Below the pieces are notes generated by a model. That model ran no database searches, was not told the DNA's origin, and saw only the letters and a program-made list of their open reading frames with translations. A stretch of DNA of 64,000 nucleotides from an uncultured Lachnospiraceae bacterium (GTDB lineage: Bacteria > Bacillota > Clostridia > Oscillospirales > CAG-272), in contig CAZMZJ010000002.1 of assembly GCA_964570825.1 (NCBI GenBank), forward strand, positions 17,070 through 81,069. Reading direction: 5' to 3'. This document shows, piece after piece, positions 1,662 through 50,168 of this stretch (positions are counted from its first letter, which is position 1; each line of letters starts with the position of its first letter). The position numbers and the translations under genes were made by a program.

Positions 1662-2294
1662 ATGAAAGCTTTCATTTATCTCGGAGGATGCGTCGATCCC
1701 CGCAACATAACCGAACACCCGAAGCCCGGCGACCTTGCCATTGCCGCCGACTCCGGCTTCCATAACGCGCTTCATCTGGGGGATCGCGTCGACATACTTG
1801 TGGGCGACATGGACTCTATCGGCGATTATGAGCATGAAGCTTTGAAAAACACCGAAATACTTAATTTCCCGCCGGAAAAAGACCTTACCGACGCGCAGCT
1901 TGCAGTCGAAGCCGCCATAATAAGGGGAGCCGACGACATTGTGATAGTCGGGGGACTTGACGGGCGGCTCGACCATACCCTCTCCGTTCTCGGAATCCTT
2001 GAAGACCTTTATGCCCGCGGAGTACATGCAATTGCGCTTAACGGCATGAACCGCGTCCGTTATATAAAAAGCACAAGCGTACTTATCCCGCGCAGCGGCT
2101 ATGAATACATTTCGCTCATCGCCGCGGATAACTCGGTCAAGGGCGTTACGATAGAAGGCTGCAAATATCCGCTGAAAAATGCCCACCTGACGCGGCGGCT
2201 TCAATATGCCGTGTCAAATGAAATCGACGGCAACTGTGCTCTTGTTTCGGTCCGCCGCGGCGGAATTTTCGTAATTGAAAGCAAGGACAAATAA
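1662..2294 (+). CDS. thiN: Thiamine diphosphokinase
   Basis: About 210 aa with GDMDS and DGRLDHTL motifs typical of TPK. Sits downstream of rsgA as in Bacillus (rpe is absent here). Confidence 0.8.
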   Translation: MKAFIYLGGCVDPRNITEHPKPGDLAIAADSGFHNALHLGDRVDILVGDMDSIGDYEHEALKNTEILNFPPEKDLTDAQLAVEAAIIRGADDIVIVGGLDGRLDHTLSVLGILEDLYARGVHAIALNGMNRVRYIKSTSVLIPRSGYEYISLIAADNSVKGVTIEGCKYPLKNAHLTRRLQYAVSNEIDGNCALVSVRRGGIFVIESKDK

Positions 2295-2492
2295 TGCGCC
2301 GCATCATCACTATTTTTTGAATATTGCTTTACAATTTATAATCATCATAAGAACCGGACGCATATACTTACACCAGAGATTGTGGGCCGTGCGGCAAAAG
2401 CATCGGGAAATCACAGGCAGCAGGTTCGGTTTATTTTACATACCCACTCCGCGGCGCCGGGCCTGAATTTGCAGAAAGGGCATGGTGAAATT

Positions 2493-2579
2493 ATGAAAAT
2501 TGTGGTATTCCGCTCACCTGCGTTTTTAGCGCCGTTCCTGCGGAGATTCTTCGGAATCAGGAAAAATAAAAAGAAATGA
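2493..2579 (+). CDS. spoVM: Stage V sporulation protein M-like 28-aa peptide
   Basis: Internal ATG of track ORF 2382..2579, with GGTGA 4 nt upstream. Peptide MKIVVFRSPAFLAPFLRRFFGIRKNKKK aligns with B. subtilis SpoVM (MKFYTIKLPKFLGGIVRAMLGSFRKD, recalled) at M1 K2 P9 F11 L12 R17 G21. Same position after thiN as in B. subtilis. A GC hairpin plus T8 terminator follows directly. Confidence 0.7.
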   Translation: MKIVVFRSPAFLAPFLRRFFGIRKNKKK

Positions 2580-2583
2580 AAAA

Positions 2584-2616
2584 CCGGGGGCCGCGGCTCC
2601 CGGCCCGTTTTTTTTG
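2584..2616 (+). terminator. Terminator after spoVM
   Basis: GGGCCG - 7 nt - CGGCCC, followed by GTTTTTTTT. Confidence 0.75.
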
Positions 2617-2623
2617 CTGGCGG

Positions 2624-2652
2624 TTGATTTAAGGGCGGCATCATGTTATAAT
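2624..2652 (+). promoter_or_regulatory. Promoter for ygiQ
   Basis: TTGATT - 17 nt - TATAAT with TGT (extended -10) directly upstream. Confidence 0.5.
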
Positions 2653-2699
2653 ACTAAGAAGAACCGCACACTTTCGCGGTTCATACTAAGGAGTGCTCA

Positions 2700-4769
2700 A
2701 TGAACGATAATAAAAAATTTCTGCCGGTAAGCCGGTCGGAAATGGACGAGCTCGGCTGGCCGGCACCCGATTTCGTATATGTCTCCGGCGACGCATATGT
2801 CGACCATCCTTCCTTCGGTGCCGCGATAATATCGCGGGTTCTTGAGGCTGCAGGATACCGCGTGGCTATCCTTGCTCAGCCTGATTTCCGCAGCGCGGAC
2901 GCCTTCCGTGAATTCGGCCGCCCGACGCTTGGTTTTCTTGTTTCAGCCGGAAATATCGACTCAATGGTGGCTCACTACACAGTCGCCAAAAACCGCCGCG
3001 AATACGATTATTACTCGCCCGGCGGCAAAACCGGCCTGCGCCCGGACCGCGCAACGATAGTGTATACAAACCGTATAAGAGAAGCTTACGGCGATGTGCC
3101 GGTCATCCTCGGAGGACTTGAGGCTTCCCTGCGCCGCTTTTCGCATTATGACTACTGGGACAACAGAATCCGCCGCTCGGTTCTGCTCGATTCCGGCGCC
3201 GATATACTGACATACGGAATGGGCGAAAATATTATACTCCGCATTGCCGAGCTGCTTGCAAAAGGCGTTCCGGTAAAAAAAATACGCGATGTCCGCGGCA
3301 CTGTGTGGGTCGGAAAGGCCGGCGATAAAGTGAGTTTCCCGGTCGCCGCCGAATTTGATTTCGACGAGCTTGCTTCGGACAAGCAGAAATTCGCCCAGGC
3401 ATTCGGCATACAGTATAAAAACCAGGATTCGGTGAACGGTCAGGCCATAATAGAGCATTACGGCGGCACGCTGCTCGTTCAGAACCCGCCGATGCCGCCT
3501 CTTGAGCGGGAAGAACTCGACCGTGTTTATTCCCTGCCGTTTGTGCGCGATTACCATCCTATGTATAAAAAATTCGGAGGTGTCCCGGCGATTGAAGAGG
3601 TCAAATTTTCCATCACCCACAACCGCGGCTGCTTCGGTGCCTGTAACTTCTGCGCGCTCTCCTTCCATCAGGGGCGGTCGGTACGCTCGAGAAGTATAGA
3701 GAGCGTGGTCGAGGAAGCAAAAAAAATCACCGAACTTGAAGATTTCAAGGGATATATCCATGATATCGGAGGCCCGACAGCAAATTTCCGTTATCCGTCG
3801 TGCGACAAACAGCTGAAGGACGGTGTCTGCCCCGGGCGCAAATGCTTAGCTCCGTCTCCATGCCCTCATCTTAAGGTTGACCACTCGGAATATATGAAGC
3901 TTATCGAGGAGGTCGAAGCTCTTCCGAAAGTAAAAAAAGTCTTTATACGCTCGGGTATCCGCTTTGATTATCTGATGCTTGATAAAGACGACTCTTTTTT
4001 CCGCAGGCTTGTGAAAAACAACGTCAGCGGACAGCTCAAGGTTGCGCCCGAGCACTGCTCACCCGGCGTTCTTAGCTGCATGGGCAAACCCAGCTTCTCT
4101 GTTTACAGCAAATTCCGCGACAAGTATTTCGAGCTTTGCGGCGAGTGCGGAAAAGAGCAGTATCTTGTTCCCTATCTTATGTCAAGCCACCCCGGCTCGA
4201 CGCTCAAGGACGCTATCGAACTGGCACTTCAGTTAAAGCGGGATCATGTAAATCCCGAGCAGGTACAGGACTTCTACCCCACCCCCGGAACCGCATCAAC
4301 AGTGATGTACTACACCGGAATAGACCCGATGACAGGAAAATCGGTTTATATTCCGGATGAAAACGAAAAACGCCTGCAGCGCGCCCTGCTCCAGCCGATG
4401 CGGCCCCAGAACGCAAATCTTGTGCGCGCGGCGCTCCGCAAAGCCGGACGCGAGGATCTGATAGGTTACGGGAAAGAGTGCCTTATACGTCCGGCGCCGG
4501 GTGATAAAATGCCGGTGCGAAAAGGCAGCGGCAGAAACGCCGGAAACGACGATGCGCCCGCCAAAGGCGGCCGTCCGCCTCAAGGACAAGGATACGGAAA
4601 CGTAAAGAAAACAAACAGGTATGAACCCAAAGGAAGCCATGAAGACAGAAAACCGCACGGCAGCGGCAGATCAAAGCCAGACCCTCGTCAGAAATCTGTC
4701 AAATCTGCAAAAAAGCCGCCGGCACATCTTCAGCAGCGCGCAGGTTCTCAGAATCGAAAGAAAAAATAG
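2700..4769 (+). CDS. ygiQ: YgiQ-family radical SAM protein (UPF0313)
   Basis: Radical-SAM cluster motif CFGACNFC, long YgiQ-type N- and C-terminal domains, basic low-complexity tail. AAGGAG RBS. Confidence 0.85.
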   Translation: MNDNKKFLPVSRSEMDELGWPAPDFVYVSGDAYVDHPSFGAAIISRVLEAAGYRVAILAQPDFRSADAFREFGRPTLGFLVSAGNIDSMVAHYTVAKNRREYDYYSPGGKTGLRPDRATIVYTNRIREAYGDVPVILGGLEASLRRFSHYDYWDNRIRRSVLLDSGADILTYGMGENIILRIAELLAKGVPVKKIRDVRGTVWVGKAGDKVSFPVAAEFDFDELASDKQKFAQAFGIQYKNQDSVNGQAIIEHYGGTLLVQNPPMPPLEREELDRVYSLPFVRDYHPMYKKFGGVPAIEEVKFSITHNRGCFGACNFCALSFHQGRSVRSRSIESVVEEAKKITELEDFKGYIHDIGGPTANFRYPSCDKQLKDGVCPGRKCLAPSPCPHLKVDHSEYMKLIEEVEALPKVKKVFIRSGIRFDYLMLDKDDSFFRRLVKNNVSGQLKVAPEHCSPGVLSCMGKPSFSVYSKFRDKYFELCGECGKEQYLVPYLMSSHPGSTLKDAIELALQLKRDHVNPEQVQDFYPTPGTASTVMYYTGIDPMTGKSVYIPDENEKRLQRALLQPMRPQNANLVRAALRKAGREDLIGYGKECLIRPAPGDKMPVRKGSGRNAGNDDAPAKGGRPPQGQGYGNVKKTNRYEPKGSHEDRKPHGSGRSKPDPRQKSVKSAKKPPAHLQQRAGSQNRKKK

Positions 4770-4800
4770 GAGATGCCGCATTTCTGCGGCATCTCTTTTT
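4770..4800 (+). terminator. ygiQ terminator
   Basis: GAGATGCCGCA - TTTC - TGCGGCATCTC, followed by TTTTT. Confidence 0.8.
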
Positions 4801-4920
4801 GACCGGGTTAAATTACTTCTAAAGTTGAAAAATTCAATCTACCGGTAATATTTTATTATTCGGATTCCTGAGGCGGGACTGCCGTTGTTATTTTTATTAT
4901 CAACAAATCAGCCTGTCAGA

Positions 4921-6588
4921 TTAAACTTTTCGTTTTTTGCCTATTACAACAGCACCGCCAAGAATTGCGACAATGGCTACGCCGGATACGAATACAGATC
5001 CGCAGCCGCCTTTCTTGGCCGTTGTCGTGTCGGAAGTAGTAACGGCGGCAGTGGTGTCAGCCGGCTTTGACGAAGTTTCGACCGGAACGGTTGTTTCAAT
5101 CGGCTTTGACGTCGTTACCTTCGCGGTAGTTGTGGTTTCAACCGGCTTTGATGTGGTGGTTTCTGCCGTTGTTTCAGCGTCAAGAACGTCGGCAGCCTCG
5201 CGCTGTGCACGCAGAGTCAGGTCTATTGTGGGATAAGGATCGGTTCCTATCTTTTGCGAGAATACAGGTGTCTCCGCAGCGGCGTTGAGTTTTTCAAGGA
5301 TTGTGCCGTTCTGGAGCTCTGTGAGAGTGCAGTAGGTAAACTTGCCGGTGCTTATGGCGTCAGCAATCGGAATGCGCTGAGCTGCATTGGAGTCAGAAGT
5401 AGCGTATGTATACCATTCGATTGTGTTGTTGTCGTAAATATAGTTGTTTGTATGCTGCTCGTCGGCAGTTTTTGCGGATGAGCAACCGTGGATGCAGCGG
5501 AAAGGAGCCACATAATTATCGCCTGTCAGTGCCCCGAGCTCGCCAACGGCAAGGCAATCTTCAATTTTATTATATACCGAGTTTGTGTAACCTATAAGGA
5601 GTGACGCAAACGCATACTGCGCACTGCCGGCCAGGTTTGTAGCCGGTTGTCCGGCCTTCACATTGGCTATGCTCACACATGAGGTGATCTCGATATACAT
5701 AGTCATACTTGCTGCGCTCGCATAGCAGTACCCAACCAGACCGCCGACCATGTATCCGCCGGAGATGGCGCCGGTATTAACACAGTATTTTAATGTGTAG
5801 GGTACATAGGTGCTGTTGCTTGCGACGCCGATGGTTCCCGCCATACCGCCTGCATGGTAACCGCCATAGATTTCAGCGGTATTTGTGCAGTCAATTATGT
5901 TGCAATTGCAGAGTGTGGCCATGAAAACGGCAAAGCCGACTATACCGCCCGCTCTTCCGGAGTTGCTCGGAGCGGAAATCATGCCGTTGTTCACGCAGTA
6001 CTTCGCCTCAAAGCCGTCGACGCATCCCGCAAGTCCGCCGGCGTGGGTTTCATACTGAGTTCCTTTTGTCGTGTCAGTGACATCGACTGTCTGCACGGTG
6101 ATATTGCCGTTGTTGATGCAGCTTCTGAAAACGCATGTGGCTGCCGCATCGCCCTTGGCAAGAATTCCGCCGGCGTTGAGGCCGGATGTTTTGTCCGAAC
6201 TCAGACCGGTAACAGTGACGTCAACATTGTTTACGACATTGATAGCTGTCATTCCGTCATATGAGAAAATTGCGAAAGGAGCAAGATCCTGATTGCCTTT
6301 GAGCTCAGTCCCGTTGATTGTAAGATTCTTAACCGTCCCGTTGAACTCGGCAAACATCGGAACCGATACGGTGACAGTGTGGCCGTTGCCGTCGAATACT
6401 CCTTTGAACGGGGTAACATATGTAGTATCAATTTTAATGTCTGCGTTCAGGTAATACTTCCCGTCAGCCGCCATTGAGGCGAAGTCTGCCGCTGAGTTAA
6501 TTGCAGTGCCTTGTACAGCCGAGGTTCCGACCGAAAACAATGGAACGATCATCATAAGACAAATTAAAACTGCAGCAATTTTACGCAT
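4921..6588 (-). CDS. Secreted GLUG-motif beta-helix repeat surface protein with Thr-rich stalk and C-terminal GCGS/TM/KKRK anchor
   Basis: Signal peptide MRKIAAVLICLMMIVPLFSVGTSA. Repeated GG[LIM][AV]G (GLUG-like) motifs. TTTSKP.ETT linker. Tail KKGGCGS + 20 hydrophobic residues + KKRKV. Confidence 0.7.
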   Translation of the reverse strand: MRKIAAVLICLMMIVPLFSVGTSAVQGTAINSAADFASMAADGKYYLNADIKIDTTYVTPFKGVFDGNGHTVTVSVPMFAEFNGTVKNLTINGTELKGNQDLAPFAIFSYDGMTAINVVNNVDVTVTGLSSDKTSGLNAGGILAKGDAAATCVFRSCINNGNITVQTVDVTDTTKGTQYETHAGGLAGCVDGFEAKYCVNNGMISAPSNSGRAGGIVGFAVFMATLCNCNIIDCTNTAEIYGGYHAGGMAGTIGVASNSTYVPYTLKYCVNTGAISGGYMVGGLVGYCYASAASMTMYIEITSCVSIANVKAGQPATNLAGSAQYAFASLLIGYTNSVYNKIEDCLAVGELGALTGDNYVAPFRCIHGCSSAKTADEQHTNNYIYDNNTIEWYTYATSDSNAAQRIPIADAISTGKFTYCTLTELQNGTILEKLNAAAETPVFSQKIGTDPYPTIDLTLRAQREAADVLDAETTAETTTSKPVETTTTAKVTTSKPIETTVPVETSSKPADTTAAVTTSDTTTAKKGGCGSVFVSGVAIVAILGGAVVIGKKRKV

Positions 6589-6672
6589 GAATAATGCCTC
6601 CTATAAAATAAAAATATAATTTCCTGCCATAATAAGGACTATCAGGTTATCGGCATGAAATTTACTATTTTA

Positions 6673-6701
6673 ATATTATCATATGCAACTATCTTTGTCA
6701 A
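6673..6701 (-). promoter_or_regulatory. Promoter of the GLUG surface protein gene
   Basis: TTGACA - 17 nt - TAATAT. The spacer contains TAGTTGCATATGATA, shared with the 8007..8035 promoter. Confidence 0.55.
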
Positions 6702-6800
6702 TATATTTTAATTTAATAAACAATTATATTAAATTTTTGTATATTGCGTATAAATATTAAAAACTGTTTTTGTATATTGTGATATTATCCTGATTTATAG

Positions 6801-6834
6801 AAATAAAAAAGACGCCACAGTACTGTGGCGTCTT
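6801..6834 (-). terminator. Terminator of the LamG-like lipoprotein gene
   Basis: GACGCCACAG / CTGTGGCGTC palindrome, followed by TTTTTTATTT on the minus strand. Confidence 0.7.
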
Positions 6835-6843
6835 TCCGATTTT

Positions 6844-7941
6844 TTAGTTGGCTTTGGAAACCTCTGCAAGATAGCCTGCGATGGCGTTCTTGTAAGCTGT
6901 TGTGGTATGGTCGGAGGGCATTTCGCCAAGTCCGGTCCAGATAGCGACATTGTCAAGATATCCGTCGATTGTTGTACCGAGCTTAAGAGCTACGGCATAG
7001 CTTTCTATCATATTCCAGTAAAGAGCTCCGGTTCCTGCCGCGTCGGGTTTGGAAACGCAGATAAACTGAGCGTTTGCCTGGCTGTTGTCACGGATGTAGA
7101 CTGTCGGGCCTTCATTATAATTTGCCTGATACCTTATTGTAAGCCACTTGTCCTTGAGCGCGTATACACTGGCATCATATGCCTGCCCTGTAAGCTTCAT
7201 AAGAACGGTGGATCCTGCGTCGGCATCGTTTGTATCGGCGGCGTAAAAATCACCTGCGACATCATATGTATACCAGCTGCCGATGAAACGGATCTGGTTG
7301 TTTGCGGATCCCGCTATGCGGAGATGGAATGAGTTATAGCTGTTGCAGCCGTCATAGTTTAGAAGTATTACACAGTATCTGTTCTTGTCCCCTGCGTCAG
7401 TGTACTTGACGTCATATTGCAGAGTGTAGTTGCCACGGCAGCATGCTATCATGTATTCATCGGTCAAAATCTTGGTATATGAGTCCTTGCCGGCTATATT
7501 CCCGCCGTCATAGTTGAGAAACCTGAGAGTACCGTTCTCAATGAAATATTTGCCTGTGTTGTCGGTGAGAGCGCCGTCCGCTGTATTTCGGATCTGCCAG
7601 CCGAGAGCTGCCATTGTGGCTTCATTGGTAGTTGTATTTGAGTAACTGTCAAAGTCTTCGAAGTACACCATCACGCCTTCCGGAACCACAGGAATTTCAA
7701 TCTTCGGAGCCGCTGTTGTTTCAGGAGCCGCGGTGGTCACCTTTGCCGTTGTCGCCGCCTTCGTGGTTTCAACCGCTTTTGTCGTAACAGCGGAAGACGC
7801 CGTCGTTACTGCACCCGTAGGAACCGACGTCGTTGTTTTATCCGCTGCTGTTGTTTCACCCGGAACGTTCCCGCCGACACAGGCCGGAAGACAAACAAGC
7901 ACCATAACAAGCGAAAGAATAAAAATTACCAATCTTTTCAT
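6844..7941 (-). CDS. Lipoprotein with Thr/Ala-rich linker and concanavalin/LamG-like domain, function unknown
   Basis: Lipobox LPAC after a hydrophobic N-terminus. About 60-aa T/A-rich linker. FEDFD...YLDNVAIW pattern as in LamG/DUF1080-type lectin folds. Rho-independent terminator downstream. Confidence 0.6.
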   Translation of the reverse strand: MKRLVIFILSLVMVLVCLPACVGGNVPGETTAADKTTTSVPTGAVTTASSAVTTKAVETTKAATTAKVTTAAPETTAAPKIEIPVVPEGVMVYFEDFDSYSNTTTNEATMAALGWQIRNTADGALTDNTGKYFIENGTLRFLNYDGGNIAGKDSYTKILTDEYMIACCRGNYTLQYDVKYTDAGDKNRYCVILLNYDGCNSYNSFHLRIAGSANNQIRFIGSWYTYDVAGDFYAADTNDADAGSTVLMKLTGQAYDASVYALKDKWLTIRYQANYNEGPTVYIRDNSQANAQFICVSKPDAAGTGALYWNMIESYAVALKLGTTIDGYLDNVAIWTGLGEMPSDHTTTAYKNAIAGYLAEVSKAN

Positions 7942-8006
7942 TGAAATGATCCTTTCTTAGCCGTATGCAATGTTTTGAAAACGCTAACAGCATTTTTCTG
8001 AAAATA

Positions 8007-8035
8007 ATTATATCATATGCAACTAATCTTGTCAA
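8007..8035 (-). promoter_or_regulatory. Promoter of the LamG-like lipoprotein gene
   Basis: TTGACA - 17 nt - TATAAT. The spacer contains TAGTTGCATATGATA. Confidence 0.55.
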
Positions 8036-8422
8036 CAAATTTTAAAACAAATACTTGAGTTTTATATCAATTGATCATTTTTCAGAACATTTTTTGTACA
8101 CTATGTTTCATTTATAAAAATATCATAATTATCTATATGCTACATATTAAATATTATTTAGTAGCCGAGTATTATATTTACAATGTTATGCCGTTATATA
8201 ATTACCGTTGCTTTTCGTTTGCCCGGATGTTTTTCACGCTGTTTTATGTTTGATACTATTGTACCGTTTTCCGCGTCACAATGTTTAGTTTTATTCTTAC
8301 ATGGCGGCAGCGGCGCAAGCGGCGCTCATATAAGTTCTGTTCCATGTCACAAAAGCCTATTTACATGTCGTTGGGTTTAATATATAATTTATATATAAAT
8401 ATTTTTTAAGAGGTAACCGAAC

Positions 8423-10120
8423 ATGAATATACCGCGTTCTGAGTATCCGAGACCGCAGTTCCGCCGCGGAAACTGGATAAACCTTAATGGAGAATGGGAA
8501 TACGAAACCGACAGAGCGGCGTCAGGCCGTGAAAGAGGCTTGCCAAAGGCCGGGTCGCTGCCGGAGAAAATAATCGTTCCGTTCTGCCGCGAAAGCGTGC
8601 TTTCGGGCATCGGCGACAAGGACTTCTGCGAGTGCGTCTGGTACCGCAGGACAGTGAATCTGCCCGAAGAGTGGCTTTCCGCGGGACGCCGAGTAATACT
8701 TCACATCGGCGCGTGCGACTGGAGAACCGAGGTCTGGGTTAACGGAGAATCTGCGGGGACGCATATCGGCGGATATGTTTCATTCTCGTTCGATATCACC
8801 GAAAAAATAAAAGGCGCCGAGAACGTCATAACAATCTGCGCCGAGGATAAACTGCGCTCAGGCACGCAGCCCGGAGGCAAGCAGTCGCAGAGATACGCCT
8901 CATACGGCTGCTCGTACACGCGCACCACCGGCATTTGGCAAACGGTGTGGCTCGAGGCCGTTCCGTCGGGATATATTAAATGTGCGAAATACTACCCTGA
9001 TATAATAAATAAAAAGCTTATAATAGAAGCTTTTTGCGAAGGGTGCGACGGACAGGCTCTGGTCGCCGAAGCGTCGTATGAAGGCAGGCCGGCAGGCGCA
9101 GCGGGTGCGGTTGTTTCCGGCGGCCGCGTCATGATAGAGCTTAAGCTGTTCGATATCTATCTCTGGGAAATCGGAAACGGCCGGCTTTACGATCTTAAGC
9201 TGACTGTCGGCGCCGACAGCGTCGACAGCTATTTCGGAATGCGCAGCATAACGGCCGACAAAGGCGTGCTTGTACTGAACGGCAAGAAGGTTTTTCAGCG
9301 CCTTGTCCTTGATCAGGGCTTTTATCCCGACGGAATTTATACCGCGCGCGAGGAGAGCGAGCTGATTGCGGATATTCAACGCTCGCTCGACTGCGGGTTC
9401 AACGGTGCAAGACTTCACCAGAAGGTATTCGAGCCGAGATTCCTGTATCACTGCGACAGGATGGGCTATATAGTCTGGGGAGAACACGCCAACTGGGGGC
9501 TTGACATTTCAAAGCCCGAAGCATGGCAGGGATTTCTGCCCGAGTGGCTTGAGGTGGTCGAACGTGATTTCAATCATCCGGCGATAATCGGATGGTGCCC
9601 TCTCAATGAAACACAGCCGGATCAGAACACCGAATTTGTAAAAATGCTCGGCATGATGACAAAGGCGCTCGATCCGGCAAGGCTGTATATCGACTCGTCC
9701 GGATGGACGCATGTGCCCGGCGTTGCCGATATAACGGATTGCCATGACTACGACCAGAACCCCGAAACCTTCAGGGCGCGCTATATGGCCGTCGCTGCCG
9801 GCGAGCCTGTCAAAACAAAGCGGAATCCGTACCCGATTTTCCCGACCTTCGTAAGCGAGTACGGCGGAATACGCTGGGCTCCCGAAAACGCCGGCTGGGG
9901 ATACGGCGAGGCGCCGAAGACAGGCGATGAGTTCATCGAACGCTTCAGAGGCCTTACCGAGGCGATTATGCAGAACCCTGTGATGGGAGGGCTTTGCTAC
10001 ACCCAGCTGACCGACGTCGAGCAGGAGGTAAACGGCCTTTACACATATGACCGCAAGCCAAAATTCGATCCGGCCGTGTTCAGGGAGGTTTTGTCGAAGA
10101 AAGCCGCAGCCGAAGACTGA
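8423..10120 (+). CDS. Glycoside hydrolase family 2 (beta-galactosidase/beta-glucuronidase-like)
   Basis: GH2 sugar-binding domain hallmark VWVNGESAGTHIGGYVSFSFDIT. Acid/base region NHPAIIGWCPLNE and nucleophile region FVSEYGG. AAGAGG RBS. Confidence 0.85.
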   Translation: MNIPRSEYPRPQFRRGNWINLNGEWEYETDRAASGRERGLPKAGSLPEKIIVPFCRESVLSGIGDKDFCECVWYRRTVNLPEEWLSAGRRVILHIGACDWRTEVWVNGESAGTHIGGYVSFSFDITEKIKGAENVITICAEDKLRSGTQPGGKQSQRYASYGCSYTRTTGIWQTVWLEAVPSGYIKCAKYYPDIINKKLIIEAFCEGCDGQALVAEASYEGRPAGAAGAVVSGGRVMIELKLFDIYLWEIGNGRLYDLKLTVGADSVDSYFGMRSITADKGVLVLNGKKVFQRLVLDQGFYPDGIYTAREESELIADIQRSLDCGFNGARLHQKVFEPRFLYHCDRMGYIVWGEHANWGLDISKPEAWQGFLPEWLEVVERDFNHPAIIGWCPLNETQPDQNTEFVKMLGMMTKALDPARLYIDSSGWTHVPGVADITDCHDYDQNPETFRARYMAVAAGEPVKTKRNPYPIFPTFVSEYGGIRWAPENAGWGYGEAPKTGDEFIERFRGLTEAIMQNPVMGGLCYTQLTDVEQEVNGLYTYDRKPKFDPAVFREVLSKKAAAED

Positions 10121-10150
10121 TAATAATTTAATAGAGGAGAAAAAGTTGAA

Positions 10151-11158
10151 ATGAAAACAATGAACGCTGCAGTGCTGCACGCGGTCGGTGATTTAAGATA
10201 CGGGACTGTGCCGATGCCCGAAAGGAAGCCGGGCGAGGTGCTTCTGAAAATTATGGCCTGCGGTGTCTGCGGGTCGGACATTCCGCGCGTGTTCGAGAAA
10301 GGCACATACCGCTTCCCCACAATACCCGGCCACGAGTTTGCGGGACTTGTTATTGAAGCGGACGAATGCGACCGCGAGCTTGTGGGAAAGAAAGCGGCGG
10401 TATTTCCGCTTCTGCCATGCAGGAAATGCGCCGCCTGTGAAATAGGCGAGTATGCGAGCTGCTCCGACTATGATTATTACGGCTCCCGCCGCGACGGCGG
10501 ATTCGCCGAGTATATCTCGGTTGACAAGCGGAATCTTGTGATGGTGCCTGACACCCTTTCGTATGCCTGCGCTTCCCTCTGCGAGCCGGGGGCAGTCGCC
10601 CGCGCCGCAGTGCGCCGGATGGATGTTCAGCTCGGAGATACGGCGGTAGTTTACGGCGCTGGGCCTATCGGTCTTATCGCCGCGCAGTGGATACGCGAGG
10701 CGGGAGCCGGATGCGTTCGCGTCGTCGACATAAGCCCGGAGAAGATTGAGTTTGCTGAAAAATTCGGCTTTCTGCCTTATGATGAAAAGCACGACGGGAA
10801 GGCAGACTGCGTGCTGGAGGGAACCGGAGCGTCGCCCGCGCTGAACAACGCTATTCTTTCGCTCAAATCCCACGGGCGTCTTGTGCTGATGGGCAACCCG
10901 GCAAAGGATATGACGATAGCTCAGTCTACCTACTCGCAGATACTCCGCAAGGAAATCAGCCTGCGCGGCACATGGAATTCTTCATACAACCAGTCAGTCA
11001 ACGACTGGGCTGAAACAATCAAGGCCATGTCGTCGGGCAAAATCAAATTCGAGGAGCTGATAACCCACCGCTACCCGCTTGCGAAAACCGCCGAGGCGCT
11101 CGAGATGATGCGCTCCCGTCAGGTGTTTTACACGAAGGTTACAATAATAAATGAATAA
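10151..11158 (+). CDS. Zn-dependent medium-chain dehydrogenase (sorbitol / galactitol-1-phosphate dehydrogenase-like)
   Basis: CGVCGSD and GHEFAG zinc motifs, structural-zinc Cys cluster CRKCAACEIGEYASC, Rossmann VYGAGPIGL. Confidence 0.85.
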   Translation: MKTMNAAVLHAVGDLRYGTVPMPERKPGEVLLKIMACGVCGSDIPRVFEKGTYRFPTIPGHEFAGLVIEADECDRELVGKKAAVFPLLPCRKCAACEIGEYASCSDYDYYGSRRDGGFAEYISVDKRNLVMVPDTLSYACASLCEPGAVARAAVRRMDVQLGDTAVVYGAGPIGLIAAQWIREAGAGCVRVVDISPEKIEFAEKFGFLPYDEKHDGKADCVLEGTGASPALNNAILSLKSHGRLVLMGNPAKDMTIAQSTYSQILRKEISLRGTWNSSYNQSVNDWAETIKAMSSGKIKFEELITHRYPLAKTAEALEMMRSRQVFYTKVTIINE

Positions 11159-11168
11159 AGGAGCTGAT

Positions 11169-13034
11169 ATGACAATCAAAACAAACGGGCTAAGACAGGT
11201 CGAACATAACGTCGATTTTTGCGTTGTCGGAGGCGGTCTTGCCGGAATGTTCGCAGCGATATCGGCGGCAAGAGAGGGCGCGAAGGTTGTTCTGATGCAG
11301 GACCGCCCGGTGCTCGGCGGAAACGCGTCGAGCGAAATACGCATGTGGGTGCGCGGCGCGGCGGGCTCCAAGGATATTAAAATCAACAATTACAACCGCG
11401 AAACCGGACTTATCGCCGAACTCGAAGAGGAGAACATCTACATCAACCCCACTTTGAACTACTCAATCTGGGACAGCGTGCTCTGGAATATGGTGAAGTC
11501 GGAGAAAAACATCACTCTGCTTCTCAACTGCTCCTGCGCCGACGCCGATATGGACGGGAGCAGGATAAAATGCGTCAAGGGCTGGCAGCTGACCACATAT
11601 ACATGGCACACTGTTTATGCGAAGTATTTTGCCGACTGCTCGGGCGACTCGATTCTGGCTCCCGTCACCGGAGCCCTGTACCGGATCGGCAGAGAGGGAA
11701 ACAGCGAGTACAACGAAACCATCGGGCCCGCCGTCGGCGACAGGAGGACTATGGGAATGTCCTGCCTTATAGAAGCCCGTGAGACCGACCATCCGGTGGA
11801 ATTCAAGGCTCCCGAATGGGCGCATGTATACATTAATGATTCGGATTTTGATTTCGTCAATGATACGAATGCTTCCGATTTTCCGCACTGCTCGGCTGAG
11901 GCGAGGGAAAAAGCCCGCCGGATAAGCCGTACGCACACGCTCGGAACAAACGGAACAAACTTCTGGTGGATAGAGCTGGGCGGAGAAAACGACAGCATTC
12001 ACGACACCGAGGAGCTGCGCGACGAGCTGCTGAAAATCGCCTTCGGCATTTGGGACCACATCAAAAACCGCGGAGACCACGGCGCCGAGAACTGGGAGCT
12101 TGAGTGGGTGGGGTTCCTTCCCGGCAAGCGCGAGAGCCGCAGGTACATAGGCCCTTACATACTTACCCAGAACGATATCGAATCCGGGGGACATTTTGAC
12201 GATATTGTAGCGTACGGCGGCTGGCCGATGGATGACCACAACCCCGGTGGATTCTACGCAAAGCATTCAGAGCCCGCCTCGCTTCTGCACCCCACGCCGT
12301 CGCCCTACGGTATACCCTACCGCGTTCTTTACTCGAAAAATATCGAAAACCTTTTCTTTGCCGGACGCAATATCAGCGCGACGCACGCCGCCATGTCGTC
12401 CACCAGAGTAATGGGCACCTGCGCAGTGCTCGGTCAGGCTATGGGAACCGCCGCCGGAATGTGCGCTGCAAGAGGCATCACTCCGAACTGCATTTATGAA
12501 TCTTATATAGGCGAGCTTCAGGCAAAGCTTCAGGAAGCAGGCTGCTGGCTGCCCTGGAAGGTCAGAAAAATACCCGAACTTTCTCTTTCGGCGAAGCTGA
12601 ATTTATCCGATGCGGAACGTGCCGTATTGTTCAACGGAATTGAAAGGCCGACCGGCGATGGCAAAAACAACTATATAACCCTTCCGCTCGGCGGCGAAAT
12701 CAGGTTCAGCTTTGACAAGCCCGAGAAAGTGGAGGAGCTACGGATTGCTGCCGATCCGGATTTTTCGAGAGAATCGGTTTCGGTCAATAAAAAAATGCGC
12801 GTTTTCGCGCAAAAGGCTTCGACCGGACTTGATTTCAAACCGATGAAGGTCGCCGCTACACTGGTAAAGGCTTTTGAGGTTTATGCCGACGGAAAACTTT
12901 TATACTCAACCGACAGGTGTCATCATTCTCTTGTTAAAATACCGGTCGGACGCTATGTTGAAGAACTTTGCGTCAGATTCCTTGAGACCTGGGGTGCTGA
13001 TGAAGTTCATATTTTCTCATGTGACATTAAATAA
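11169..13034 (+). CDS. FAD-dependent oxidoreductase (FAD_oxidored/PF12831-like) with C-terminal beta-rich domain
   Basis: Dinucleotide-binding motif DFCVVGGGLAGMFAAISAAREG. Start moved to the ATG at 11169, which has AAAGGAG 5 nt upstream. The track ORF start at 11151 overlaps the upstream stop. Confidence 0.7.
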   Translation: MTIKTNGLRQVEHNVDFCVVGGGLAGMFAAISAAREGAKVVLMQDRPVLGGNASSEIRMWVRGAAGSKDIKINNYNRETGLIAELEEENIYINPTLNYSIWDSVLWNMVKSEKNITLLLNCSCADADMDGSRIKCVKGWQLTTYTWHTVYAKYFADCSGDSILAPVTGALYRIGREGNSEYNETIGPAVGDRRTMGMSCLIEARETDHPVEFKAPEWAHVYINDSDFDFVNDTNASDFPHCSAEAREKARRISRTHTLGTNGTNFWWIELGGENDSIHDTEELRDELLKIAFGIWDHIKNRGDHGAENWELEWVGFLPGKRESRRYIGPYILTQNDIESGGHFDDIVAYGGWPMDDHNPGGFYAKHSEPASLLHPTPSPYGIPYRVLYSKNIENLFFAGRNISATHAAMSSTRVMGTCAVLGQAMGTAAGMCAARGITPNCIYESYIGELQAKLQEAGCWLPWKVRKIPELSLSAKLNLSDAERAVLFNGIERPTGDGKNNYITLPLGGEIRFSFDKPEKVEELRIAADPDFSRESVSVNKKMRVFAQKASTGLDFKPMKVAATLVKAFEVYADGKLLYSTDRCHHSLVKIPVGRYVEELCVRFLETWGADEVHIFSCDIK

Positions 13035-19602: not shown

Positions 19603-21261
19603 TTATAACCGGAACTGCATAAAAAGCCTGTCGGCTCCGTTCGCCGATATGACCCCGAGCGACATTATTATTGTCCCGATGAAGCAGGCGGCGGCGAATG
19701 CCGAAACCAGCGCCCTTGCCCAGCCGCTCCGGGCCTCTTTTGCTGCTCTCAGAAAAAGCACTGTCCCAAAAGTCGCGGCAAGAGGCAAGAAATCATACAG
19801 ATAGCGCAAATTGACGCCCGCCTTGCAGAAATCGACGAAAATCACAAAACATATCACAGCCGCTCCAGCAATAAAAGTCGAGTACTTTGACCACTCCTTC
19901 GCCTTGAAGCGGCTAAAAAACGGTCCGATGACAAGGCCGAGCGTAGCGGGAAAGAAAAGCAGTCCGGTGCTGTAGTCGAGATACATATAGCGGCCGTAAT
20001 CAAGATTAAGGTACGACGGTTTGACAAACGGGAAAGCCGGCATGAATTTCGGCATCTGGAACACATAATGGAAAAACGCATAAGGAGCGAGCCGCAGCTC
20101 CAGTGTGTTTTTTGAAATATCGCAGACTGTGAGCTGGTAGTTCGCGCCGAAGTCAAACGGCGAGCCGAAACGCAGGAAATTGAAGGTCATGACAACCGCC
20201 GCGCCGGCGCAGGCGACAAGAGCCGCGGGCACGAACAGGACGGCCTTTTGCCCTGCCCCGCGTGTTTTTATGAATATGCGCTCAATAACGGCCGGAGCCG
20301 CTGCTGCGCACATAAGAGAAGCTGTCGGGCGTGACATGACCGACATTACAAACGACAGGGATGCAAGCGCGAAAAGAGCAGACGCCCGCTCTTTTTTTTC
20401 GGTGCGGCAGGCCCTGAATGCAAAGAAGAAAGCCGCGTAATTGAACCCCATCGCCGAAAGGACGGGTATATAATAAATATCCGCATAGCTTTGCGCGGTA
20501 TAAATACCGCTGCCGAAGGCCAGCGAAACAAGAGAAAGCAGCACCAGCCACAGCTTTGGCTTTGCGTCGGCTAAGATAAGAAATTCAATCAGCGAAAGCG
20601 ACAGGGTCAGCACGGTGAACACCGCAAGAATGAAGCATACGGTATCTGACGGCGGCAGGCTGCCGGTGATGGCGTAGTATGGATAGTAAACGCAGAAAAT
20701 CGGCGCCAGCCCGAAATACGAGTAGTATTTCCCGTTATAGAAGGCCCTGTCCCAAAAATACTGCACCTTATAATAATCCCGCGCGTCCCTGTCATACGGA
20801 TTTTCCATTGCGGCAAGTTCGCCGGACACCGGTATATCCAGTTCAATCTGCCCCTTTTGCAGCGCATCGAACTGCTGGACATACGGATCTCCGCCCTCGA
20901 TTTGCGCTTTCGTCATCGGGTAAACTGTACTTTCGCCGAGATTTTTTACCGCGGAAAAGCATATTACAGCACAGAAAAGAGCTGTCAGGCCGAAAAGCAG
21001 CATCTGGCGCCGGTCGCATATGTCGAATTTTCTGACGCCGGCACCCGACGCAAGATTCAGTACTATGAAAATAAGCAGGCCAAGCCCCGCAAAAGCGACA
21101 AACGAAAATTCCGGAGCGCCGATCCCGAGATGCACACGCAGCTTTTCTGCGGCGTATGACACGCACGCCGATAAAACCGCAAGAAGAGAAATTAAAATAT
21201 ATGGTTTAATAATGATCTTTCCGGCTTTTTTAAGCAGTGAAATTTTTTTGTCATTTTTCAT
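19603..21261 (-). CDS. Polytopic (about 13 TM) membrane protein, possibly a GT-C-type glycosyltransferase; function unknown
   Basis: 552 aa, many hydrophobic segments. Large loop after TM3 carries ENPYDRDARDYYKVQYFWDRAFYNGKYYSYFGLAP. The assignment to ArnT/PMT-like enzymes is by general architecture only. Confidence 0.4.
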   Translation of the reverse strand: MKNDKKISLLKKAGKIIIKPYILISLLAVLSACVSYAAEKLRVHLGIGAPEFSFVAFAGLGLLIFIVLNLASGAGVRKFDICDRRQMLLFGLTALFCAVICFSAVKNLGESTVYPMTKAQIEGGDPYVQQFDALQKGQIELDIPVSGELAAMENPYDRDARDYYKVQYFWDRAFYNGKYYSYFGLAPIFCVYYPYYAITGSLPPSDTVCFILAVFTVLTLSLSLIEFLILADAKPKLWLVLLSLVSLAFGSGIYTAQSYADIYYIPVLSAMGFNYAAFFFAFRACRTEKKERASALFALASLSFVMSVMSRPTASLMCAAAAPAVIERIFIKTRGAGQKAVLFVPAALVACAGAAVVMTFNFLRFGSPFDFGANYQLTVCDISKNTLELRLAPYAFFHYVFQMPKFMPAFPFVKPSYLNLDYGRYMYLDYSTGLLFFPATLGLVIGPFFSRFKAKEWSKYSTFIAGAAVICFVIFVDFCKAGVNLRYLYDFLPLAATFGTVLFLRAAKEARSGWARALVSAFAAACFIGTIIMSLGVISANGADRLFMQFRL

Positions 21262-21589: not shown

Positions 21590-22657
21590 ATGAAAAAAAT
21601 ATTATCGTTTATTATTATTGCACTTTTCTCAGTATTTTTTCTGACAGCCGCCCTTCCGGCGGCCGCCTACAGCATCCCGTGTGAGATTGTCATCACCGAG
21701 TGCTTCAGCAACCCCAACACAGTGCCGTACGAGGGCGGCGCTAACACCAAGGATTTTGTGGAGTATATGGAGATAATGAATATTTCGGCGCATGACGTCG
21801 ACCTCTATGACTATACTTTCTATTATCTCACCGATACCACCGCCGATGCGGTTCAGGCTAAAGCCGATACCGGAGCCGCGGGAAAATCAGAAACCTTCTC
21901 GGATATACAGGGCCAGTATGTGCTAAAACCCGGCCAGACGGCTCTGGTCTGGTTTATAACCTCCGAGGTGTGGCAGTATCAATCCACTCACCTTATGATG
22001 GCGCTCGGCACCGACAATAAGCCCGAGTACTACACCGACAAGTACTGGCAGACATTGCATGACTTTGCCGTCAATACCTGCCAGATGACCGGAATTCCCG
22101 ATACCTTGAACGGAATAATTGTCGTTTATGACCTCTCGAATGAGTACGGCACCGGCGACACGCATTTCAACATGGCAAACCCGTCCGCGACAAAAGCCTG
22201 CGGCTATTATATCTGCGCCCGCGACGCTGCGGTTGAGAGCTATTTCACCGGGGTAATCGTTCCCGCCACAGCAGATTCCGCCGATGTGGGCTTCAGCTAC
22301 GATTTATCGGACGGCAAGGTCCTGTCTCTTGTTGACAGCACGATATATGATGTTACTCCCGGCGCGCTTCATCCGTCGCAGAAAAACCTCGCCGCCGTTC
22401 TCGGAGTGACTTTCGAAACGGCAGCTCAGGAAACCACGACCGGAACACCCTCGACGACGGCAAATCCCGGGACGACATCGCCTTCGGTTACAACCAACGC
22501 CGCGACCACGACAAAAGCGGCAACAACAGCGCCGGCAACAACCGCTCCGATGACAACCTCTCCTTCCGGCAGAAAAGGATGCGGCTCGGCTTTGAACATT
22601 ATGCCTTTGCTGTTTGTACTGGCTGCATCTTTGGTCATTACCAAAAAGAAAAATTAA
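21590..22657 (+). CDS. Secreted lamin-tail-domain (LTD)-like surface protein with Thr-rich stalk and C-terminal GCGS/TM/KKKN anchor
   Basis: Signal peptide ending AAAYS. The segment ITECFSNPN...DFVEYMEIMNISAHDVDLYDY...VLKPGQTALVWF follows the LTD pattern INE..NP...EFIEL.N....vDLsGw....l.pG. TT-rich linker. Tail RKGCGS + hydrophobic helix + KKKN. Confidence 0.6.
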   Translation: MKKILSFIIIALFSVFFLTAALPAAAYSIPCEIVITECFSNPNTVPYEGGANTKDFVEYMEIMNISAHDVDLYDYTFYYLTDTTADAVQAKADTGAAGKSETFSDIQGQYVLKPGQTALVWFITSEVWQYQSTHLMMALGTDNKPEYYTDKYWQTLHDFAVNTCQMTGIPDTLNGIIVVYDLSNEYGTGDTHFNMANPSATKACGYYICARDAAVESYFTGVIVPATADSADVGFSYDLSDGKVLSLVDSTIYDVTPGALHPSQKNLAAVLGVTFETAAQETTTGTPSTTANPGTTSPSVTTNAATTTKAATTAPATTAPMTTSPSGRKGCGSALNIMPLLFVLAASLVITKKKN

Positions 22658-22768: not shown

Positions 22769-23293
22769 TTACTCTTTACAGTCGTCGGCGCAACCGCATC
22801 TTCCGGGAGCCGCGCAGCTTATATGGCTGCAGCCGGTTACGGCTTTTATGCCTATGGTGAACGGAATCTTTATTTTAATGCGCTGCGTTATTACAAGACG
22901 GCAGGTGTTGCCGCAGGGTTCACATTCGCAGGACACGTTAGGCTCGCCGCAGCAGTCGGTTTCAACCTCGCCCACGCATGTGTTTGGCAGTATCTCAAGC
23001 GGCAGACTTACCTCTGCAATTTCGAAGCCGGTTTTGGAGCATTTGTCCGGAGGAAAACAGGGCTTATCAACGCTATCCGGTTTGAAATTCTTATTATCCA
23101 TATCAAAACAAGCGTTTATGTCGCTTCTTCCGACGATCCGGAACAGTGAGCCGAGCCGCCGGAATGCCGGACGCAGCCACCTTGCCGCCGCCCGCCAAAA
23201 CGCTTTCTTGCAGCCGCCGGATTTATCATATGATATATCCGCTTCGCCTTCGCCGTTTTCCCGGCGGTTTTTACCGTTTCGTCCTCGTCTCAT
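22769..23293 (-). CDS. Cys-rich protein with basic N-terminal region, function unknown (spore coat/exosporium-like composition)
   Basis: 16 Cys by eye in the C-terminal roughly 110 aa (DCCGEPNVSCECEPCGNTC ... CSHISCAAPGRCGCADDC). Convergent terminator downstream. Start ambiguous: ATG 23293 is preferred, GTG 23308 abuts the SD, and an internal ATG (MDNKNF) is also possible. Confidence 0.5.
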   Translation of the reverse strand: MRRGRNGKNRRENGEGEADISYDKSGGCKKAFWRAAARWLRPAFRRLGSLFRIVGRSDINACFDMDNKNFKPDSVDKPCFPPDKCSKTGFEIAEVSLPLEILPNTCVGEVETDCCGEPNVSCECEPCGNTCRLVITQRIKIKIPFTIGIKAVTGCSHISCAAPGRCGCADDCKE

Positions 23294-23580
23294 TTCGACA
23301 TAACGCACCCCCTTTCGTATTTCTGCTTATATTATATGCTTAAAAAGTCGTATTTGGCAGAAAAACAAGAGGGGAATTTTTTTAATTTGCTGCACTGTCA
23401 TGTTTTTTCCGACAGATGCCGGATGCGGTCGGATTTTACGCAAATCGGTCAATAAAAAGCTCCGCCTGCAAATCGTGCCATGGCGAAGCTTTTATTATTT
23501 CCCTGCCGGAAAACCCGTTCCGCACAGCCGGAAAACGCGGGGGCGCCGCAGAAACGTCCGGCAAGGCTGTCAGGAGTTCC

Positions 23581-27357: not shown

Positions 27358-27434
27358 TGGTCGGAGTGACAAGATTTGAACTTGCGACCTCTTGGTCCCG
27401 AACCAAGCGCTCTACCAATCTGAGCCACACCCCG
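27358..27434 (-). tRNA. tRNA-Pro (anticodon CGG), CCA encoded
   Basis: Minus strand reads CGGGGTGTGGCTCAGATTGGTAGAGCGCTTGGTTCGGGACCAAGAGGTCGCAAGTTCAAATCTTGTCACTCCGACCA. Cloverleaf checked by hand: 7-bp acceptor, anticodon stem CTTGG/CCAAG, loop TTCGGGA, T-loop TTCAAAT. Confidence 0.95.
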
Positions 27435-47165: not shown

Positions 47166-47555
47166 TTATATAATAACGTGGTCCTGTCCGCCGTAGCCCG
47201 CTTCAAGCAGCTCGACTATTCTGTCTTTCCTTCCGGAAAGGTACAGCCAGCCGGCAAGCGTTTCCATGCCGGTCGCCGTCCTGTATTCGGCGGCCGTGGC
47301 GTTTTTCGGCAGATTTGAGTGTCCGAGATTGCGCCCGCGCCGGAACATGGCATCCTCGTCCGGCGTGAGCAGCGGCAGAATTTTCTTCATTGCGCCTGCC
47401 TGCGCCGGCGCGGTGACATATTTCATCGCCTCGGCATTGAGCTCGCGTGAACCGGGCAAACCCGACCTCACAAGCCTTTCGCGCACCCAAAGCTCGATGA
47501 CAGAGTCACCGAGATAAGCGAGCGCGGCGGCACCGGGAACATTTGCAGAATCCAT
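47166..47555 (-). CDS. mrnC: Mini-ribonuclease 3 (23S rRNA maturation)
   Basis: AALAYLGDSVIELWVRE RNase III-like signature. Start set at ATG 47555, overlapping the upstream stop (TGATG). The N-terminal extension in the track ORF is out-of-gene read-through. Confidence 0.8.
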   Translation of the reverse strand: MDSANVPGAAALAYLGDSVIELWVRERLVRSGLPGSRELNAEAMKYVTAPAQAGAMKKILPLLTPDEDAMFRRGRNLGHSNLPKNATAAEYRTATGMETLAGWLYLSGRKDRIVELLEAGYGGQDHVII

Positions 47556-48667: not shown

Positions 48668-48668
48668 T

Positions 48669-49817: not shown

Positions 49818-50168
49818 TTTTCTTCTCCAGATATATAATTTATTTGCAGCTGACCGCTGACCGCTGCCATTGACATGCTGTGCCATTAAAAATAATAACT
49901 GAACATTAAGTTTGTCTTTATTTTGATGTTTTATGATGCCGCTGATGCCTGTGTATCTCTGCAATAGCAATATTTGTCTTTGTTTTTGGCTTTTTTGTCT
50001 TGATATATTCGGAAAAATATTCTATAATAGTCATGTATTTTAATTATATCACCCCCGCGGAGTGCTGTCAACGTAAAACAAAAATGTTCTGACGGCATCA
50101 GCGTCCTGTCAAAGCGTTATTTCCCGGGAAAACTCGGATATTCGAGAGACAAAAAGAGGAACCTTGCG

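Follow-up and report, generated by a model that had tools for sequence, protein, structure and literature searches.

The display of surface proteins by Gram-positive bacteria is at present accounted for by four routes, namely, sortase-dependent (LPXTG) anchoring, N-terminal lipoproteins, noncovalent wall-binding modules, and plain membrane anchors. The locus described here raises the question of how two of its secreted proteins, which have unrelated bodies and the same C-terminal end, are held at the cell surface. The window, i.e., the whole stretch of DNA that was analyzed, is 64,000 nucleotides long and comes from an uncultured Lachnospiraceae bacterium (contig CAZMZJ010000002.1, positions 17,070 to 81,069 of the forward strand). 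It encodes a 555-amino acid (aa) secreted β-helix (GLUG-like) surface protein (4921..6588, minus strand) and a 355-aa secreted LTD-like protein (21590..22657, plus strand), both of which end in a tail made of a Gly-Cys-Gly-Ser motif, a transmembrane helix, and a cluster of lysines. This tail is a real, widespread, positionally fixed, and modular C-terminal domain with an invariant Cys, which can take the place of a sortase signal and which is not modeled in the current libraries. The function proposed here, with a probability of about 0.55, is that of a modular Cys-type tripartite sorting or anchoring domain of uncultured gut Clostridia, in which, by analogy with known systems, the Cys would be lipidated and the chain would then be cleaved within the membrane by a CPBP-like protease.

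The GLUG-like protein terminates with KKGGCGSVFVSGVAIVAILGGAVVIGKKRKV, translated from window:4921-5016 on the minus strand, and the LTD-like protein with RKGCGSALNIMPLLFVLAASLVITKKKN, translated from window:22571-22657 on the plus strand, each at the very end of its open reading frame. The layout is the same in both, and consists of G-C-G-S, a hydrophobic helix of 18-19 residues, and a basic end that is either KKRKV or KKKN. In the GLUG-like protein, the signature G528-C529-G530-S531 (4996..5007; Cys529 codon at 5002-5004, GCA on the plus strand and TGC on the coding strand) is followed by the helix VFVSGVAIVAILGGAVVIG (residues 532-550, 4939..4995; helical at residues 538-549 in the AlphaFold2 (AF2) model), the predicted cytoplasmic cluster KKRKV (residues 551-555, 4924..4938), and the stop codon (4921-4923), all on the minus strand. 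The corresponding plus-strand elements of the LTD-like gene are G330-C331-G332-S333 (22577..22588; Cys codon TGC at 22580-22582), the helix ALNIMPLLFVLAASLVIT with a Pro inside (residues 334-351, 22589..22642), the cluster KKKN, also predicted to be cytoplasmic (22643..22654), and the stop codon (22655-22657). Upstream of both tails is a Thr/Pro-rich stretch of about 50 residues, which reads ETTAETTTSKPVETTTTAKVTTSKP...TTSDTTTA in the GLUG-like protein and ETAAQETTTGTPSTTANPGTTSP...PMTTSPSG in the LTD-like one. The former stalk covers residues 472-524 (5017..5175, minus strand) and is disordered, with a predicted local distance difference test (pLDDT) score <50 from residue 472, and the latter, which is rich in Ala as well, covers residues 276-327 (22415..22570, plus strand). 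Both proteins start with a signal peptide, MRKIAAVLICLMMIVPLFSVGTSA in the GLUG-like protein (residues 1-24, 6517..6588, minus strand; AF2 helix at residues 2-19) and MKKILSFIIIALFSVFFLTAALPAAA in the LTD-like protein (residues 1-26, 21590..21667, plus strand), the cleavage sites being approximate. A six-frame scan of the window showed that these two are its only single-pass secreted proteins in which a C-terminal helix is followed by a basic end. The translated coordinates thus bear out the preliminary description of this DNA, which had reported a shared GCGS, transmembrane helix, and Lys-cluster tail after a Thr/Pro-rich stalk.

The passengers of the two tails are unrelated, one being a GLUG-like β-helix and the other LTD-like. 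These labels, which were assigned at the outset, hold only loosely: both Pfam families are matched, GLUG at 14 bits and LTD at 25.1 bits (residues 32-123, cutoff 34.3), but both matches are weak and lie under the Pfam cutoffs. The AF2 model of the GLUG-like protein (mean pLDDT 82) has a confident β-helix at residues 28-466, disorder from residue 472, and a terminal helix, and in Foldseek it is most similar to a putative IgA1 protease (3n6z) and to the N-terminal regions of IgA1 proteases.

Searches with the full-length sequences found 10 relatives of the LTD-like protein and 104 of the GLUG-like protein. Tails of the same kind occur in 66 relatives from both families, down to about 30% identity of the passenger, and the Cys is present in 66/66; it is preceded by Gly in 63/66 and followed by Gly in 59/66, and the next residue is Ser or Gly in 63/66. 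Seven of the eight full-length homologues of the LTD-like protein have this type of tail, and in a 26-sequence alignment of the GLUG family C529 is invariant and G528 nearly so. Because the motif is conserved to about 30% identity while the linker ahead of the tail varies freely, the motif is under selection of its own, and the invariance of the Cys lends support to the earlier suggestion of a possible uncharacterized tripartite signal built around it.

The spread of the tail was determined with a profile of 42 positions, built from 37 tails (alignment A2) and run by exhaustive hmmsearch on 1.84 billion (1.84e9) cluster representatives, with library-wide E-values and blind to the position of the match in the protein. 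At E ≤ 1e-3 the search returned 773 clusters, of which 12 also reached E ≤ 1e-10. Each of the 150 best matches ends ≤3 residues from the C-terminus, and 143 of the 144 newly found proteins among them keep the Cys. The sole exception, P0166 (127 aa), has GGGG for G-C-G-G and yet scores 49 bits; here the Cys may have been lost in nature, or the difference may stem from sequencing or assembly. Since P0166 reaches this score without the Cys, the profile does not force the residue, and its retention elsewhere is informative and not a search artifact. A word-indexed search with the tail profile retrieved only 4 short proteins, a metagenome scan with a narrower subtype alignment retrieved 8 loci, 7 of them under ~4 kb, and tblastn of a plasmid collection with the consensus tail gave no match. 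The motif is therefore not confined to the two window proteins, nor is it unconserved in their orthologues: it is found in hundreds of unrelated secreted carriers, always at the extreme C-terminus.

The anatomy of the tail was counted on 196 non-redundant sequences. With the Cys at position 0 (196/196), Gly occupies -1 in 192 and +1 in 178 (Lys in 14), Ser or Gly occupies +2 in 187, never Pro, and hydrophobic residues run from +3 onward. The basic cluster follows the Cys at a distance of 20-24 residues (mode 21-22), and the basic end is Lys-rich and has 3-6 residues in all but two tails. The region upstream contains T 24%, A 17%, P 15%, and E 14.5%. Thus, the consensus reads [E/K]-K-x-G-C-G-[S/G], followed directly by a predicted membrane helix of 18-20 residues that contains Gly or Pro and by a Lys-rich end of 3-6 residues. 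Gly or Pro is in the helix core of 178/196 tails, and two subtypes are recognized, of which the Gly type (...AILG[T/S/G]A...) accounts for 140 tails and the Pro type (...IPAAVV...) for 39. These subtypes cut across the passenger families; for example, the form ...AC(V/M/I)IPAAVVICKKK is common to an LTD protein (P0006), a GLUG protein (P0046), a 76-aa lipoprotein (P0115), and others, as would be expected if the tails co-evolve with a shared machinery and not with their passengers. Read outward from the membrane, the tail is hydrophobic-[S/G]-G-C-G and the lipobox of N-terminal lipoproteins is L-[A/S]-[G/A]-C-[G/S], so that the one resembles a mirrored version of the other.

The carrier proteins range from 31 to 1499 aa. 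A Pfam scan of the 72 carriers of ≥200 aa identified FIVAR, Laminin_G_3, Flg_new, CBM9, M26_N, GDSL lipase, F5/8 type C, LTD, cohesin, GLUG, and pectate-lyase-like passengers, which, to judge from these assignments, are typical Gram-positive surface domains and mutually unrelated; no Pfam family covers the tail itself, either in these carriers or in the two window proteins. The N-terminus is signal-peptide-like in 83 of the 136 carriers that start with Met, and 21 of these 83 have a lipobox. Several tails may occur on one genome fragment, i.e., two in the window, three within 20 kb in L005, and two each in L003, L004, and L007. The named sources are all metagenome-assembled genomes (MAGs) of a "Clostridia bacterium" or "Eubacteriales bacterium", one labeled Lachnospiraceae, and they are of gut origin (goat, sheep, cattle, and roe deer). 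Representative genomes supplied 80 GLUG-related loci, and the tail is present in 7 loci of the class Clostridia and in 0/21 of those labeled Bacteroidales, Treponema, Planctomycetota, Verrucomicrobia, or other phyla. There are also tiny carriers of 65-140 aa (P0160, at 206-403 in L086, P0121, P0133, P0123, P0115, and others) that comprise only a lipobox signal, a Thr/Pro/Glu linker, and the Cys tail; judged by their sequences, both termini of these proteins would be tethered or lipidated.

In more distant GLUG homologues, the position of the Cys tail is occupied by P-x-T-G-D-[S/A] followed by a helix and KKK, and two of the three GLUG-homologue tails tested pass the NF033846 Rumino_NPXTG model (34.8 and 24.7 bits, cutoff 23.5). 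A Clostridia MAG from cattle colon (L011) has a tandem array of five GLUG β-helix paralogues (1674-11893), with a passenger identity of 32-36%, in which four members have PPTTGDS (NPXTG-type) tails and one has a GGCGS tail; therefore, both anchoring systems coexist in one genome. Other distant relatives (P0009, P0109, and P0111) have plain, longer helices and neither motif. This exchange with NPXTG, together with the existence of separate plain anchors, indicates that the Cys tail fills the slot of a processed sorting signal, distinct from that of a plain anchor.

The next point is whether the tail corresponds to a known signal. NCBIfam 20.0 (June 2026) was run on both full-length proteins, the 37 family tails, and 102 further tails, and none of its models describes the tail: none covers >8/37 or >7/102 tails, and the matches, which run through the helix and the basic end, are spread among many sorting-domain models. 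The preliminary description had left room for identity with Firmicu-CTERM, but this model gives no match (E ≤ 10 on the 37 tails, E ≤ 0.01 on the 102) and is missing from the match lists of the 2 full-length proteins and the 139 tails. At the same thresholds, MYXO-CTERM (TIGR03901) and CGP-CTERM, the two other models named there for comparison, and JDVT-CTERM are also without a match on the tails. The best-scoring known model is Synerg-CTERM (TIGR04564), with 5/37 tails at E ≤ 10 and 5/102 at E ≤ 0.01. Only P0071 (1/37) passes it, with 23.2 bits against a cutoff of 22.5 (model positions 3-27/27); the LTD-family tails score 14.7-16.4 bits, under the cutoff, and the window tails are not matched.

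The class into which the tail fits is that of the four Cys signals described by Haft, MYXO-CTERM (GCGC), Synerg-CTERM, JDVT-CTERM, and CGP-CTERM, which are tripartite, have an invariant Cys, and have been assigned to CPBP/Rce1-like proteases; their motif abuts the helix, and the region upstream is Thr/Ser-rich (10.1101/2023.06.07.544157). These traits are shared by the tail, with its tripartite layout at the C-terminus (150/150 best matches), its invariant Cys (196/196) that abuts the helix without a spacer, as in the CPBP "myxosortase" class, and its several unrelated, signal-peptide-bearing carriers per genome. Neither "Firmicutes" nor "Clostridi" appears in the text of that study (10.1101/2023.06.07.544157), and no description of such a signal in Firmicutes or Clostridia was found in the literature.

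Each member of the class differs from the tail in its details. Synerg-CTERM, the signal of the MrtS system, similarly has a Gly/Ser cluster ending in an invariant, helix-abutting Cys, and a Pro in the helix recurs in one subtype of the tail. Conversely, the Cys is followed here by G-[S/G] before the helix begins, 140/196 helices are of the Gly type without Pro, and Pro is found in only 39/196; moreover, the phylum is another one, and neither a type II secretion system nor an MrtS gene was seen in the neighborhoods examined. As a group, the tails lack what marks Synerg-CTERM, namely, a score ≥22.5 bits, an invariant Pro in a Leu-rich helix, and Synergistales hosts with type II secretion and MrtS. 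MYXO-CTERM (with MrtX, in Myxococcota) shares the invariant Cys in Gly-Cys-Gly, GCGC there and GCG[S/G] here, as well as the many unrelated secreted carriers per genome and the position of the tail after a disordered linker. However, only the MXAN_2561 family model matches, weakly (4/37 and 4/102 tails), the end is Lys-rich instead of Arg-rich, a second Cys beside the motif is unusual, Pro is frequent in the helices and absent from those of MYXO-CTERM, and the host is a member of the Clostridia, most likely with no outer membrane or type II secretion step; the HMM (hidden Markov model) match, GCGC-type motif, Arg-rich end, and Myxococcota host that define MYXO-CTERM are not found. CGP-CTERM (TIGR04288; archaeomyxosortase MrtA, Thermococcales) has an invariant Cys-Gly where its helix begins and a Thr/Ser-rich stretch of 30 residues upstream that suggests O-glycosylation, comparable with the 24% Thr upstream of the tail, but it is archaeal, is only 20 residues long, and has an invariant Pro after Cys-Gly. 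JDVT-CTERM, in turn, is marked by a DP motif ahead of a Leu-rich helix. The tails have no Pro at +2, no DP motif, and no HMM match that would place them in CGP-CTERM or JDVT-CTERM.

Based on the analogy with MYXO-CTERM and myxosortase, lipidation, cleavage, and an enzyme of that type are most likely, and the sequence of events may be as follows. The carrier would be exported by Sec through its N-terminal signal peptide, and the helix of the tail would keep it in the cytoplasmic membrane, so oriented that the Cys is at the outer face and the lysines are in the cytoplasm. An Lgt-like acyltransferase would then lipidate the Cys thiol, and an intramembrane protease, most plausibly of the CPBP/Rce1-like "myxosortase" type, would cut just after the Cys. 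As a result, the passenger would be held at the surface by a C-terminal lipid, and the long Thr/Pro stalk between them, which is probably O-glycosylated, would span the wall. For MYXO-CTERM, cleavage by MrtX depends on the Cys and also takes place in E. coli; the leading candidate for a lipidation that precedes cleavage is Lgt (PMC11980579). In the tail, the short helix with Gly or Pro fits the substrate of an intramembrane protease, and the lipidation step draws support from the mirrored lipobox seen in the direct reading of the sequence: as in the Lgt/LspA substrates, a Cys flanked by small residues lies two residues past a hydrophobic helix, on the outer face, with a basic cytoplasmic side. 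The chain direction is reversed, however, the motif is C-terminal, there is no equivalent of the -3/-2 positions (Leu, Ala/Ser), and cleavage by LspA would fall on the wrong side of the Cys; whether the reversed topology is acceptable to Lgt has been discussed for MYXO-CTERM (PMC11980579). A broader proposal, made tentatively and at slightly less than even odds, is that the tail represents a fifth Cys-type system and the first in single-membrane (Gram-positive) bacteria, in which a "mirrored lipobox" would lead to a C-terminal lipid anchor on hundreds of surface proteins, beside or in place of sortase, by means of an enzyme that would belong to a new CPBP clade or to a family not yet linked to sorting. 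The host lineage most likely is single-membraned.

Several observations weigh against the proposed lipidation and cleavage. As the preliminary description had stated for the window, no sortase, CPBP protease (PF02517), rhomboid, or exosortase is recognizable among its 26 Pfam-scanned proteins, a set that takes in all of the polytopic membrane proteins and all candidates without annotation. The flanks (10 kb on the left and the ~3 kb recovered on the right) and the annotated neighborhoods of seven other tail genes (L001, L003-L005, and L099-L101) yielded no processing enzyme either. Including the polytopic proteins of L011, L017, L019, and L065, which were also scanned, the neighborhood search yielded one generic CPBP gene and nothing recurrent. 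This gene (L019, 713-1774, plus strand) encodes a 353-aa Rce1-like CPBP protein (PF02517, 70.8 bits) 8 kb upstream of a 1001-aa tail protein, and it is the only CPBP gene in the fetched loci (1.39 Mb searched), where it has no counterpart. Its best NCBIfam matches, ABC_perm_CPBP, MroQ, and MrtJ, are generic and all far under the cutoffs (MrtJ, 34.6 bits against 75), and its frequency is about that expected from background. Housekeeping sorting enzymes, such as SrtA and MrtX, usually are not adjacent to their substrates, and for this reason the missing nearby enzyme is weak negative evidence. In addition, the four Cys-type systems known so far are those of Myxococcota, Synergistota, the JDVT-CTERM hosts, and Thermococcales archaea, and the two with transport data use type II secretion; with an apparently single membrane in this Clostridia lineage, the destination must differ from that of type II secretion cargo. 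The basic cluster, finally, is Lys-rich and not Arg-rich.

Other explanations of the tail were considered. The motif is short and the surrounding sequence is compositionally biased, so one might regard the likeness of two unrelated hydrophobic C-termini as a matter of chance or low complexity; the Cys kept in 66/66 homologue tails, the 773 clusters at E ≤ 1e-3, and the 150/150 best matches placed at the C-terminus exclude this for practical purposes. A divergent LPXTG/NPXTG-type signal, joined to peptidoglycan by a sortase through transpeptidation, has more in its favor, since these signals (TIGR01167, NF033846) agree with the tail in place, in passengers of a kind usually sortase-anchored, and in the helix-plus-basic-end layout, and since the two tail types replace each other within the GLUG family. 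TIGR01167 gives sub-threshold matches (13.1-13.4 bits, cutoff 15.9) and Rumino_NPXTG weak ones (8/37 tails, best E 0.021). The TIGR01167 matches, however, run through the helix and basic part only (model positions 15-32/34), the tail has no P-x-T-G element and has a Cys where the Thr-Gly scissile site stands, the motif abuts the helix with no spacer, and the true NPXTG tails of same-genome paralogues are clearly distinct. With neither an [LN]PxTG motif nor an HMM score above the cutoff in the Cys tails, a sortase substrate is very improbable.

A plain, uncleaved type I C-terminal anchor, in which Gly-Cys-Gly would be structural or the Cys would be S-acylated with the helix retained, agrees with the lack of a dedicated enzyme gene near about 15 tail loci and with the motif-free helix anchors of the distant homologues P0009, P0109, and P0111, and the tail alone would be sufficient for anchoring. 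Nevertheless, simple anchoring does not need an invariant Cys with fixed neighbors in 196 tails on unrelated passengers, nor does it account for a position that is exchangeable with a cleaved sortase signal. Furthermore, the helices of P0009, P0109, and P0111 are longer, with no Pro, at most a few Gly, and no Cys, whereas those of the Cys tails are shorter and have the G/P core (178/196) typical of intramembrane-protease substrates; for these reasons, the plain anchor is considered unlikely. An invariant Cys at the outer membrane face might alternatively form a non-lipid covalent link (thioether, thioester, or disulfide) to a wall polymer, an S-layer component, or another partner, with or without cleavage, as the preliminary description had also raised, and no lipid-transfer enzyme is tied to the system. 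Such a link is improbable, given that the described C-terminal sorting systems yielded no precedent, that no partner gene is present in the neighborhoods, and that the small residues flanking the Cys and the direct abutment of the helix fit a membrane-embedded enzyme better.

If the proposed lipidated and cleaved tail is confirmed, a Cys-dependent C-terminal signal would become the fifth route of Gram-positive surface display, used in abundant but uncultured Clostridia of ruminants and the gut by hundreds of surface proteins of adhesin-like, carbohydrate-binding, and enzymatic kinds. The myxosortase-type pathway would then reach past double-membraned bacteria and archaea, which would sharpen the question of which enzyme lipidates Cys-type signals, and surface-display engineering in anaerobes would gain a new handle. 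In addition, the tail profile would enable annotators to flag, in these MAGs, surface proteins that are now all "hypothetical".

The surroundings of the two window genes deserve a few remarks. Beside the GLUG-like gene is the gene of a 365-aa protein (window 6844-7941, minus strand) that starts with a lipoprotein signal (LVCLPAC|VGG), continues directly with a Thr/Ala-rich stalk, and then has a globular domain; on the sequence level, this protein appears as the N-terminal mirror image of the C-terminal stalk-plus-Cys arrangement of its neighbor. Divergently transcribed from the LTD-like gene is the gene for a 552-aa polytopic membrane protein (window 19603-21261, minus strand), which has no Pfam, NCBIfam, or PDB-sequence match; it was evaluated as a conserved partner of the tail genes and rejected, as the 1.39 Mb of fetched loci that were searched contain no homologue. 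Just downstream of the LTD-like gene is a Cys-rich 179-aa open reading frame without a family match (window 22769-23308, minus strand), which contains …CGEPNVSCECEPCGNTC…CAAPGRCGCADDCKE.

The left flank of the window (L097) encodes PriA, peptide deformylase, a formyltransferase, Zn_peptidase_2, YicC, and RemA, and L001 has the same gene content upstream of its LTD homologue, P0008; near the LTD gene itself, the gene order of one lineage is rearranged relative to the other. Elsewhere in the window, two tandem paralogous genes encode GxDLY/GDSL-type esterases of 370 and 433 aa (47555-49970, minus strand), and the sole Rfam match is one tRNA gene (27361-27434, minus strand).

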